From Candidatus Nitrosopumilus koreensis AR1 (GTDB lineage Archaea; Thermoproteota; Nitrososphaeria; Nitrososphaerales; Nitrosopumilaceae), in NCBI RefSeq assembly GCF_000299365.1, contig NC_018655.1, positions 510,001 through 542,000 on the forward strand: DNA of 32,000 nt. Reading direction: 5' to 3'. The notes under the pieces are model-generated. The model saw nothing but the letters and a program-made list of their open reading frames with translations. It did not search any database and was not told the DNA's origin. Both the position numbers and the translations under genes were made by a program. Positions 5,700-19,205 of this stretch are shown in pieces (positions within the stretch are counted from its first letter, which is position 1; every line of letters starts with the position of its first letter).

Positions 5700-6056
5700 C
5701 TATATGTTTTTCAGTCTGTCTAATAAAATATCAAAATTAATTGGTTTTCTCATCCATGCTTTTACTCCGCGTTGCATTAAATTAGTTAATTTTGTACTTG
5801 ACATTTCAGATGCTGTTATGATCAAAACCTTTGTCGTGTTGATCAGACCTTCTTTTTCCAAAGCATCTATTACGTTTAATCCACTAAATTCTGGCATTGC
5901 AATATCTAAAAGCACTACATCAAATGTGCCTGTCTTTATCATTTCTATCCCTTTATGGCCATTATTTGCTGTGATGACTTCATGACCTGCAGCTGTTAGA
6001 TGTACTGAGATCAAATCCAATATGTCTTCAGTGTCGTCAATTACTAGAATTTTCAA
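5700..6056 (-). CDS. Single-domain response regulator (CheY-like receiver)
   Basis: 118 aa. KILVIDDTEDILD acidic pocket, phospho-acceptor context VVLLDIAMPEFSG, and conserved K in RKPINF. TTG start overlaps the kinase TGA stop (TTGA). Confidence 0.85.
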   Translation of the reverse strand: MKILVIDDTEDILDLISVHLTAAGHEVITANNGHKGIEMIKTGTFDVVLLDIAMPEFSGLNVIDALEKEGLINTTKVLIITASEMSSTKLTNLMQRGVKAWMRKPINFDILLDRLKNI

Positions 6057-6958
6057 GATGTCTTATCTCCTGCATCTTTTGGAACTGTGAAGTAAAAAAT
6101 TGTTCCTTTTCCTAGTTCGCTTTCACACCAAATTTGACCGCCCATCTTTTTTATTATTCCTTCACAAATGGATAATCCTAATCCTGTACCTCCATGTTTT
6201 CTAATGTTTGAGGAATCTATTTGATAGAATTTCTTGAATAGGTTTTTTTGGTTTTCTTTTGATATTCCCACTCCGTTATCTTTTACTGAAAACATAACAA
6301 ATTCTCCTGTTTGCTCTGCATCTAGTTCTACAATGCCTGTATCATTTGGAATAAAGTCTAATGCATTGTTGATCATATTGTTGAACACTTGTTCTAATCT
6401 GTGTGCATCCCCATTAATCACAATACGTTGATTACAATTGTTTTGTAATTTCACATTTTTTTTATTAAATTCGTGTTCAAAATTTTGACATATTGTTTCA
6501 ATTAATTCTTTAACATCAAATGGAGTGTTGTTCATTTCCATTCTGTCTATCTCTAATTTTTGAACATCTAACAAGTCTCCAATCAATTTGTTTAATTTTA
6601 CTGCATTTGAATAAATCGCATTTACTGCTTTTTTCTGTTTTTCTGTAATTTCTCCTACAATCTTTGGATTTGTCAATGCTTCAGCCCATCCTGTAATTGG
6701 TGTTAATGGGGTCTTGAGTTCGTGAGCTATTGTGGATAAAAATTCTGTTTTCTGTTTTTCTATTTCTTTTAGTTTGTCAATCTGCTCTTGTTTTGCTGTG
6801 AAATTTGCAAATAATCTGATTACATAAAACAACAGAAAACTCATAGCGACTCCTATGATGGGTATGAGAAATAACGCCAATTGTTCTATTCCTTCATGTG
6901 GAGGCTGCATGCCTTCATATACAAAAATCCAATCTCTGTTGTTTTCTGCAAGTGTCAC
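6053..6958 (-). CDS. Histidine kinase core (TM helix, HisKA, HATPase_c); probably the C-terminal part of a CHASE sensor kinase
   Basis: H-box STIAHELKTPLTPI, N-box NNMINNALDF, G-boxes DNGVGI and GGTGLGLSI. It begins at a GTG only 5 codons after an in-frame stop and directly abuts the CHASE ORF. Confidence 0.85.
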   Translation of the reverse strand: MTLAENNRDWIFVYEGMQPPHEGIEQLALFLIPIIGVAMSFLLFYVIRLFANFTAKQEQIDKLKEIEKQKTEFLSTIAHELKTPLTPITGWAEALTNPKIVGEITEKQKKAVNAIYSNAVKLNKLIGDLLDVQKLEIDRMEMNNTPFDVKELIETICQNFEHEFNKKNVKLQNNCNQRIVINGDAHRLEQVFNNMINNALDFIPNDTGIVELDAEQTGEFVMFSVKDNGVGISKENQKNLFKKFYQIDSSNIRKHGGTGLGLSICEGIIKKMGGQIWCESELGKGTIFYFTVPKDAGDKTS

Positions 6959-7773
6959 TTTTTTAAAAAAACATCATCATGTACATCATGTGGGACCACA
7001 TCATAGGAATCAAAAAACAAACTATCTTCTGATATTATATTGTCATAAATTTCCATGTGTATGTATTCAAATGATTCTAAACCAAAAATACCTTCAACAA
7101 AATCATTCATTCTAAATACTGCATATACCATCCCTTCCAAATTATCTGATGTTTGTGGTTGACCATTAGTATAAACTGGAACTAACATTAAAAATCCATT
7201 TTGAATATCGTCATCGATTTCTTGTACTAGAATAATTTTTCCAGTTACTGTTGTCTCTCCTGTTTCCTTGACTGTATTTACTGCCTCTGCTCTTGTTTCT
7301 TGAAAATAGATATCATATCCCATTGCTTCTTTGTTTCTGATGTCTTGTGGTTCTAGGAATATTATGGGATAATATTCGTCTCTGATTCCGTCAGGATGTA
7401 CTGTAAAATCTGTTACTCCATAATTCTTCATTTCATTAATCAATTCATCACGTTCATCATTAGTGATGTGGTGTATGTATCCGATACCCTGAATTCCTGG
7501 ATATCTTTCATTGATATTTTGTATTTGGACATAATCTGACCATTCGTCATATTCAACTTTTTCTGATGCAGCAAAAAGTCCTTTGGCACCAACCAATACT
7601 TGCTCATATTGTGATAATCTGTCTGAAACAGAATCTGTCATAAATTGAACCTCTGAATCAAATTTTATGTTCTGTATGTTTGATTCTGAATACAAAAATC
7701 CTATCCATATGATTCCTGTCAAAACTAGAGATGTGCCAAGTATTGCCCATGGCAATTTATTCAAATGTTGCAT
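6955..7773 (-). CDS. CHASE extracellular sensor domain with N-terminal TM helix; probably the N-terminal part of the same kinase
   Basis: TM segment LPWAILGTSLVLTGIIWIGFLY. CHASE-like signature ERYPGIQGIGYIHHI...YYPIIFLEPQDIRNKEAMGYDIY...GFLMLVPVY. The ORF stops at TGA 6957..6955, before the second TM helix that CHASE sensors normally have. Confidence 0.75.
   Translation of the reverse strand: MQHLNKLPWAILGTSLVLTGIIWIGFLYSESNIQNIKFDSEVQFMTDSVSDRLSQYEQVLVGAKGLFAASEKVEYDEWSDYVQIQNINERYPGIQGIGYIHHITNDERDELINEMKNYGVTDFTVHPDGIRDEYYPIIFLEPQDIRNKEAMGYDIYFQETRAEAVNTVKETGETTVTGKIILVQEIDDDIQNGFLMLVPVYTNGQPQTSDNLEGMVYAVFRMNDFVEGIFGLESFEYIHMEIYDNIISEDSLFFDSYDVVPHDVHDDVFLKK
6958..6970 (-). other. Tandem in-phase -1 slippery heptamers T_TTT_TTA and A_AAA_AAG, immediately followed by the 0-frame TGA
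   Basis: Reverse strand reads GAT GAT GTT TTT TTA AAA AAG TGA in the CHASE frame. The kinase frame (GTG ACA CTT...) is exactly -1 relative to it. Functional recoding is unproven; a homopolymer miscall is an equal or better explanation. Confidence 0.35.
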
Positions 7774-16780: not shown

Positions 16781-18046
16781 TTACTTTCTCCTTGGATTTT
16801 GATAATTGAATTTGTTTATTTTAATCAATTCTACATATGATCCAAACTGTGTTGTGTTTGTAATTTTGTCAAGTTTGTCTTCTGATTCGTCACTGTCTTC
16901 AAACTTTTTTATTATTTTGTATTTTGTATTTCTTTCTGCAGGGACTCTGTTGATTTCTCTTACCATCCTTCTAATTTCTTTTGGTCTCAATAATTGTCCG
17001 TGTTCTGAACCTGCAGAAGTTGAAATACTTTCGTTAATTAAAGTTCCACCAAAATCATTAGCTCCCCACATTAATAATAATTGAGACATTTTTTGTCCTT
17101 CTTTAACCCATGACATCTGTATGTTATCGATGTAATTGTTCAACATTATTCTTGCAATTGCATGGGTGAGTAAAACATCGTTTCCACTTCCTCCCTGTCT
17201 AATTCCTTCATGTAATTGATGTTTGTACATTGGTGCTTCTGTATGAATAAAATTAAGCGGAACAAATTCTGTAAAACCCTTGGTTTCTTTTTGAATTTCC
17301 CTTAATTTTTCAATATGTTTTACTCTATCTTCATGAGATTCCAAGTGCCCAAACATCATAGTTGATGTTGTGTTTATTCCAATTTTGTGGGCGTTTTTGA
17401 TGACTCTTTCCCAATCTTTCACACTAATTCTGCCTGGTGAAATTTTGTCTCTTAATCTTTGATCAAGGATTTCAGCTGAAGTGCCTGGAAGTGTATCTAC
17501 TCCTGCTTCTTTCATTCTTTTGAGAAATTCTTCTATGCTTACACCTGAACGTGTGGCTCCATACAGAATTTCTTCAGGTGAGAATCCATGGATATGAATG
17601 TCTGGAATTTCCTTTTTGATTTCCCTACAAATATTTTCATACACATCTCCTTCCATGTCTGGTGGAAGCCCTGCTTGAATACAAACTTCAGTTGCCCCTA
17701 ACTGATGTGCCTCTTTTGCTCGACGTACGATCTCTTCTGTTGGTAGAAAATATCCTTCCTCTTCTCTAAAATCTCTGCTAAAAGCACAAAATCCACATTG
17801 TTTGATACATACATTTGTAAAATTGATATTTCTATTTACTACATAAGATACGACATTTCCTACTCTTCTCTTTCTTAATTCATCTGCTACCATTCCCACT
17901 AGATGAAACTCAATTCCAGATGTATTGTACAATTCCAAACCTTCTTTTGCAGAAACTTCTTTTTCTGAAAGAGCTTTGTTTAGAATTTCTGAAACAATCG
18001 GATCTGTATCTCTGAAAATAGCATCTATGTTTCTTATCATCTCCAA
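16781..18046 (-). CDS. cofH: 7,8-didemethyl-8-hydroxy-5-deazariboflavin (F0) synthase subunit CofH
   Basis: 421 aa. Radical-SAM motif CIKQCGFCAF preceded by VVNRNINFTNV. Overlaps cofG by 10 nt. Confidence 0.88.
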   Translation of the reverse strand: MEMIRNIDAIFRDTDPIVSEILNKALSEKEVSAKEGLELYNTSGIEFHLVGMVADELRKRRVGNVVSYVVNRNINFTNVCIKQCGFCAFSRDFREEEGYFLPTEEIVRRAKEAHQLGATEVCIQAGLPPDMEGDVYENICREIKKEIPDIHIHGFSPEEILYGATRSGVSIEEFLKRMKEAGVDTLPGTSAEILDQRLRDKISPGRISVKDWERVIKNAHKIGINTTSTMMFGHLESHEDRVKHIEKLREIQKETKGFTEFVPLNFIHTEAPMYKHQLHEGIRQGGSGNDVLLTHAIARIMLNNYIDNIQMSWVKEGQKMSQLLLMWGANDFGGTLINESISTSAGSEHGQLLRPKEIRRMVREINRVPAERNTKYKIIKKFEDSDESEDKLDKITNTTQFGSYVELIKINKFNYQNPRRK

Positions 18047-19205
18047 TACTCCTTCTTTACCAGACCTTCCTCATCTTGAACTTTTTCCATTTTTTCTTGT
18101 AGTTCTTTACTAATAAAAGAAAAGAATTCTGGATATATTGGAAACCTACATTTCAAATCAAATCCTGCCTGTTTAGAATTTTCTTCCACTCTGTTTATCT
18201 CCGGCCAGGAAAATTCTGGATTTACAAAATCGGGAGTTAATGGTGAAATTCCTCCCCAATCATTTATTCCCACTGACAAAAAACTTTGATACGACCTGGG
18301 TGAAAGGTTTGGTGGAATCTGTATGTTCATTTTAGGCATGATTATTCTGGATAATGCCACAATGATCTTGAAATATTTTTCATCAGCTGATGGCTCACCT
18401 CTCATTCTGGTATCTTGTTTTGGTTGGAAATTTTGTAAGATCACTTCTTGAATGTTTCCGTATTTTTGATGTAATTGTTTGATTGCTAATAACGAATCAA
18501 CAATCTCTTCTATGTTTTCCCCAATTCCTACAAGAATTCCTGTTGTCATTGGAATGCCTAACTTTCCAGAGTTTTCTAAAATCTCTAACCTTGCCTTTGG
18601 CCTTTTACTTGCTGCCAAGAAATGAGGCATTCCTTTCTCGGTTAACCTATCACTGATATTTTCAAGCATCAACCCCATTGAAACATTTGTTTTCTTTAAC
18701 TCCTTCATCTCTTCAAAATTCAAGTTTCCTGCATTGGTATGTGGAAATAACCCTTTTTCCAATGCTGTTTCGGATGCATGAATTAGGTATTCTGAAGTGG
18801 TTCTAAATCCATTTTCTCTTAACCAATCCCTTGCCTCTTGGTATCTTTGTTCAGGTTGCTCTCCTGTTACAAATAATGCTTCAACACATCTGTATTTTTT
18901 TGCAAGATCAAGTAATTCTGTAATTTGTTGCTTTGACATTAATGATAGTTTTTCTTCTCCTGGCTCTGCCTTGTATGTACAATATGAACAACTATCTTTG
19001 CAGAGATTAATGATGTTGAAAAATGCTTTTTTTGAAAATGTTACTGTGTTTCCCTTGTGTTTTTTCTTAAGACTTGTGCTGTTGAAAAAAGTTCGTTTGG
19101 ATCTTTTACTGCATGTTGATACACCTCTAAAATACTCTGACGTGAAATTTCCTTGTTGTCTAAAACATTGTTTAAACTCTCAGAATTTAAGACAAGTTTG
19201 TTCAA
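18037..19205 (-). CDS. cofG: F0 synthase subunit CofG, interrupted by a -1 frame change near 19059..19065
   Basis: The track ORF (18037..18939) starts at an internal Met. Its frame is open upstream to 19179 and encodes the radical-SAM motif NTVTFSKKAFFNIINLCKDSCSYCTY, yet has no ATG/GTG/TTG. A 54-codon ORF in the adjacent frame runs from TTG 19205 to a TAA stop at 19043..19041 (MNKLVLNSESLNNVLDNKEISRQSILEVYQHAVKDPNELFSTAQVLRKNTRETQ). It supplies a plausible N-terminus and joins the main frame by a -1 shift. Confidence 0.8.
19059..19065 (-). other. In-phase -1 slippery heptamer A_AAA_AAC at the cofG frame junction
   Basis: The upstream frame reads AGA AAA AAC ACA. After a -1 slip the next codon is CAC, giving ...AQVLRKN-HKGNTVTFSKK.... 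Equally explained by one missing A in an A6 run. Confidence 0.35.

Follow-up and report, generated by a model that had tools for sequence, protein, structure and literature searches.

The sensor histidine kinase gene recorded as two open reading frames (ORFs) on the minus strand of this archaeal genome is very probably an ordinary CHASE sensor kinase gene in which a run of eight T residues was under-called by one base. The gene lies within a window of 32,000 nucleotides, which corresponds to bases 510001 to 542000 of a single-contig genome (1,639,964 bp, 34.18% GC), and window coordinates are used unless otherwise stated. The original prediction favored a programmed -1 ribosomal frameshift at two tandem slippery heptamers, a proposal at odds with the relatives, in which the gene is unsplit and lacks the heptamer, and with a near-identical genome that carries T8 and a single ORF. 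An under-called homopolymer, which had been listed as an alternative, fits the observations best: the assembly holds dozens of such breaks, some of them in essential genes.

Architecture of the locus

The features of the locus are:

6053..7773, minus strand: whole sensor histidine kinase gene (TM1-CHASE-TM2-HisKA-HATPase_c), a single gene in all relatives and two ORFs here
6955..7773, minus strand: upstream ORF fragment of 272 aa, with the N-terminal TM helix and CHASE (Pfam CHASE PF03924), ending ...DDVFLKK-TGA
6053..6958, minus strand: downstream ORF fragment of 301 aa in the -1 frame, with the conserved NNRDWIFVYEG segment, TM2, HisKA and HATPase_c (Pfam, alignment)
6965..6971, minus strand: T7 run of the coding strand, the most likely place of a one-base shortfall (the twin protein has FFKK, the T8 outcome)
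6959..6964, minus strand: A6 run followed by G, which with the T run makes two in-phase X_XXY_YYZ heptamers
6955..6957, minus strand: TGA stop of the upstream frame, overlapping the GTG (6958-6956) that opens the downstream ORF
5700..6056, minus strand: REC-only response regulator of 118 aa (Pfam Response_reg, 3.5e-21)

The Pfam match to CHASE (PF03924, E = 1.1e-51) spans residues 72-253 of the 272-aa ORF, and the 301-aa ORF matches HisKA (1.9e-16) and HATPase_c (1.9e-30). The H-box of HisKA is STIAHELKTP, of which AHELKTP was read directly from the sequence, as were the hydrophobic stretches of the joined kinase, LPWAILGTSLVLTGIIWIGFLY and LALFLIPIIGVAMSFLLFYVIRLF. When the two parts are joined, CHASE falls between two TM helices and is followed by HisKA with its phospho-acceptor histidine and by HATPase_c, the arrangement of a CHASE sensor histidine kinase. 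The start of the REC gene overlaps the kinase stop by 4 nt, so the REC-only regulator is likely the partner of the kinase, encoded in the same operon. In the scheme that we propose, the locus would consist of one two-component sensor gene followed by its REC-only response regulator.

Re-examination of the ORFs, the sequence and the Pfam matches reproduced the predicted split, its coordinates and the phasing of the heptamers on the minus strand. Across the junction, the minus strand reads ...CAT GAT GAT GTT TTT TTA AAA AAG TGA CAC TTG.... Both T_TTT_TTA (6970-6964) and A_AAA_AAG (6964-6958) are phased as X_XXY_YYZ in the upstream frame. The downstream ORF, in the -1 frame, begins with GTG at 6958, upstream of which only 5 further codons are open (two stops, then CFFKK-VTLA). 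For a full-length kinase made from a T7 template, the predicted junction peptides are ...DDVFLKKVTLAENN... and ...DDVFLKKVTLAENNR.... In a translation model, adding one T to the run (T8) yields one contiguous ORF with FFKK in place of FLKK.

The coding-strand run at 6965-6971 is recorded as T7, and the real genome most probably has T8. The missing T would shift the reading frame and bring the TGA at 6955-6957 into phase, and the gene would then appear as two ORFs. This probably stems from an under-called homopolymer in an assembly built from pyrosequencing reads only; neither ribosomal nor transcriptional recoding would be involved.

Homologues are single chains

When the joined protein's junction region was used as query, 67 proteins were recovered, and those of full length (545-585 aa) have CHASE, HisKA and HATPase_c on a single chain. 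The named homologues of the kinase come from Nitrosopumilus. The earlier view that the two ORFs represent one TM-CHASE-TM-HisKA-HATPase gene is borne out: each of the 34 other homologues compared (about 34-67% identity) is a single ORF, and none has an FLKK or FFKK motif. The comparison with orthologues that had been suggested as a check therefore shows neither the split nor the heptamer to be conserved. In place of FLKK or FFKK, the junction residues elsewhere are DFSKTINIS, DFSTTMTTS or DFSETITVN.

The alignment of 35 full-length or nearly full-length homologues places the break inside a juxtamembrane segment (..DFSxT....NNRDWIFVYEG..) that is continuous in all of them, and this position corresponds to the conserved segment between CHASE and TM2. 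The model with one added T aligns without gaps to the 34 homologues. At the DNA level, one species-representative genome (G011) has an unbroken 549-codon frame over query residues 1-553, and in a second (G005) the frame is open from the contig edge. A match covering the CHASE region was found in only 2 of the 24 congeners searched.

Two further readings of the split were considered and rejected. Two independent polypeptides as the natural state, already thought unnatural in the original prediction, are ruled out by a break that interrupts a segment continuous in 35 of 35 homologues. Reading of the TGA as a sense codon under an alternative genetic code is ruled out by the location of the two parts in different frames.

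A near-identical record carries the intact gene

The best database match (P0001, 570 aa) and its cluster mate (P0069, 573 aa) are encoded on a 57,964-bp contig of an NCBI assembly. P0069 equals both window ORFs joined, bar one residue, with ...DDVFFKKVTLAENN... where the window has ...DDVFLKK and then the stop. It is letter for letter the translation of the window with one extra T, so a protein on record bears out the expectation that a single added T or A makes the reading frame contiguous.

Both kinase fragments of the window are on record on two contigs, the longest of 1,639,964 bp. The exact Elp3-like, REC, PurM and PAC2 proteins that flank the kinase (four of the five flanking proteins) are on record on three contigs. 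The third of these contigs probably belongs to the twin assembly; if it does, the twin would be identical around the gene and differ in the length of the T run. Since the twin is a separate record, perhaps from another enrichment culture, the two may truly differ as strains. An exact-pattern scan of metagenome contigs for the tract with T7, T8 or A7 gave no match.

Sequencing background

Run-length errors at long homopolymers are a known weakness of pyrosequencing. Three Nitrosopumilus genomes (AR1, AR2 and SJ) were assembled from enrichment metagenomes for which the only reads were from 454 GS-FLX Titanium, both single and 8-kb mate-pair, at bin coverages of 34x and 42x (Park et al. 2014, PMC4010524). 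AR1 (34.2% GC) and SJ (15 contigs averaging 110 kb) were sequenced independently and share about 99% ANI (PMC4010524). The present genome agrees with AR1 in genus and GC content and is probably this 454-only assembly.

Frame breaks across the genome

Is the kinase break exceptional in this assembly? All ORFs of at least 120 aa from a complete congener (G012; 1,563,356 bp, PurM 91% identical) were compared with this genome by tblastn, and the reverse comparison was made with the ORFs of this genome. At 51 places in this genome, a protein of the congener is split over two neighboring HSPs in different frames, and 40 of the 51 breaks fall at A/T runs of 6 or more (6-9), compared with 15% of random 45-nt windows. 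One base is missing at 34 of the 51 breaks, as at the kinase site, and there is one base too many at the other 17. In the reverse direction only 12 places were found, 4 of them at runs of 6 or more, and these involve mostly short, doubtful ORFs. Stricter filters left 38 breaks in this genome (32 at runs) versus 2 in the congener (none at runs), and further filtering left 25 (20 at runs) versus 1 (none at runs). The congener lacks an orthologue of the kinase, which is thus not counted among the 51, and the break counts are therefore lower bounds.

Break positions in the genome include 106177, 183769, 240879, 1166268, 1407933, 1457362, 1603880 and 1614458. The sole glutamyl-tRNA synthetase (GluRS) is broken, with its catalytic domain parted from the anticodon-binding domain, as is the quinolinate synthase NadA, for which Pfam profile positions 1-178 and 184-295 lie in separate ORFs. 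Genes for TFE-alpha, a Hel308-like helicase and a ThiS-ThiF E1-like protein are also broken. Relatives with 84-98% identity to each half carry intact GluRS and NadA. An enrichment culture that grows could not have this many genuine lesions in single-copy genes that it cannot do without.

A homology-free scan for run-length changes of +/-1 that join two long open frames was also tried. It returned 206 sites at first and, with stricter settings, 56 in this genome versus 45 in the congener; the scan does not discriminate because normal neighboring genes with A-rich ends also score.

The window contains a second break, in a CofG-like radical-SAM gene (FO synthase subunit) at 18037-19205 on the minus strand, with an A6 run at 19060-19065. 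This gene, which encodes 389 aa in the congener, is split after about 54 codons (..VLRKNTRETQ, then a stop), and ..VTFSKKAFFNI..C..C..C continues in the -1 frame. Its CofH-like partner (16781-18046) is intact.

Some breaks are common to this record and the twin, namely those in GluRS (240879-240891), a second DEAD-box helicase (1234123) and E1 (1407933); identical GluRS, helicase and E1 fragments are recorded for contigs of 153,540, 348,922 and 54,992 bp, respectively. By exact look-ups, the kinase, NadA, TFE-alpha and Hel308-like breaks occur in this record only. Partial sharing of this kind would be expected from systematic, context-dependent miscalls on the same platform, which are the more plausible explanation for an essential synthetase; real shared frameshifts are unlikely there.

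Slippery heptamers and the case for recoding

The slippery heptamers lie in the correct phase of the upstream frame, but the base rate of such motifs is high. Long ORFs of this genome contain 276 other in-frame A_AAA_AAG, 82 in-frame T_TTT_TTA and 4498 in-frame X_XXY_YYZ heptamers, and the genome, with 34% GC, has 883 T7 runs and 2167 A6 runs. The heptamers at the junction are no more than chance would give, and such heptamers are neither rare nor avoided in the genome. Any frame break within a T7A6 tract shows a slippery heptamer in at least one of the three phases, so the heptamers are a by-product of the break.

The original prediction had noted no convincing stimulatory structure downstream, and folding agrees: the 98 nt downstream fold at -16.5 kcal/mol versus a shuffle mean of -15.6 (z = -0.32, hairpin folding). 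Slippage of the dnaX type at A_AAA_AAG needs AAG to be decoded by tRNA-Lys(UUU) alone. This genome encodes both tRNA-Lys(ctt) and tRNA-Lys(ttt) (ARAGORN), and the dnaX-type context, AAG without a cognate tRNA-Lys(CUU), is absent. The two-frame layout with its heptamer was found neither in the 34 other homologues nor in the near-identical twin.

Why is the gene split?

Three findings argue for a homopolymer error: the break lies in a T7 run, the run has another length in the twin record, and the assembly has an excess of like breaks that extends to indispensable genes. The main rival is a real, strain-specific deletion of 1 nt, by which this strain would have lost one T from a T8 mutational hot spot and the kinase would be a recent pseudogene or two fragments that are non-functional or partly functional. 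Indels do arise readily at homopolymers in nature, and sensor kinases can be dispensed with and are patchy in distribution, as the detection of the CHASE region in so few congeners illustrates; moreover, the T8 twin may be a separate enrichment culture at about 99% ANI. Against this, the assembly has about 40-50 such breaks, some in essential single-copy genes, and as these cannot all be real, the prior that any one break is technical is roughly 10 to 1. In addition, apart from the break, both fragments match the intact twin protein at 100% identity and show no other decay. We consider a real deletion unlikely, and T7 as a miscall of T8 remains the preferred reading of the locus.

Recoding on a genuine T7 is far less probable still. 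Here, a full-length kinase would be made by a programmed -1 ribosomal frameshift at T_TTT_TTA or A_AAA_AAG, or by RNA polymerase slippage on U7/A6. The phasing of both heptamers and the collinearity of the -1 product with the homologues are as such a process would have them, and dnaX and fucA1 provide precedents. The absence of the layout from the 34 other homologues and the twin speaks against it, as do the encoded tRNA-Lys(CUU), the hundreds of other in-frame A_AAA_AAG and thousands of other X_XXY_YYZ heptamers in long ORFs, and a downstream sequence that folds no better than its shuffles. Runs of 6-7 are, furthermore, short for efficient transcriptional slippage. In a broader form of the argument, T7 would be real and low-level full-length kinase would arise via -1 slippage or polymerase stuttering on U7/A6, and the breaks shared with the twin (GluRS, helicase, E1) would be genuine and tolerated by an AT-rich, streamlined archaeon through polymerase or ribosome infidelity at A/T runs. 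Such infidelity has been described for insect endosymbionts; by analogy it might operate here, although we regard this as very improbable. An under-called T8 in an ordinary sensor gene would account for the locus without it.

Implications for the genome record

The split kinase is without importance as a candidate for recoding, since what the evidence indicates is an ordinary two-component sensor gene with an assembly artefact. The broader message concerns the genome record, which carries roughly 40-50 or more homopolymer frame breaks, and all split genes at slippery runs in it should be presumed technical unless reads show the contrary. Fragments of the kinase (the 272-aa CHASE and 301-aa pieces), GluRS (a 419-aa piece), NadA, TFE and others stand as separate proteins in a public collection (NCBI, mostly UniRef and NCBI nr). 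Deposited in this form, fragment ORFs can give rise to misleading 'split gene' clusters.

Comparison with known systems

A_AAA_AAG is the -1 frameshift site of E. coli dnaX, and the heptamer and its phase are identical here. Unlike dnaX, the present site lacks an SD-like stimulator upstream and a hairpin stimulator downstream, its two-frame arrangement is not conserved, and this archaeon has the cognate tRNA-Lys(CUU). The outcome would also differ: in dnaX the shifted frame stops after one codon and gives a shorter product, whereas here 301 codons would follow.

The alpha-L-fucosidase gene of Saccharolobus solfataricus (fucA1, A_AAA_AAT) uses a -1 frameshift and is likewise archaeal, with two ORFs, an A-rich heptamer and a -1 relation between the frames. 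For fucA1, the split was reportedly confirmed by resequencing and the product shown experimentally. Unlike fucA1, the kinase gene is unsplit in a near-identical genome, and the present assembly has many further breaks.

In common with 454 under-call errors, the break sits in a homopolymer of 7, changing its length by one base gives back a protein that is collinear with all relatives, and a near-identical record has the other run length. The assembly contains dozens of comparable breaks, most of them at A/T runs of 6-9 and most lacking one base. A point of difference is that three other breaks are common to two assemblies, the level at which the comparison was made.

With the T restored, the protein resembles the Nitrosopumilus 'CHASE domain-containing protein' (about 46-49% identity over the junction region searched, residues 150-400). 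Transmembrane sensor histidine kinases with a CHASE domain (PF03924 with HisKA and HATPase_c) are common in Nitrosopumilus, and the present gene has the same TM-CHASE-TM-HisKA-HATPase_c layout with a REC-only regulator adjoining. The frame break in the present record is the sole difference from this family.
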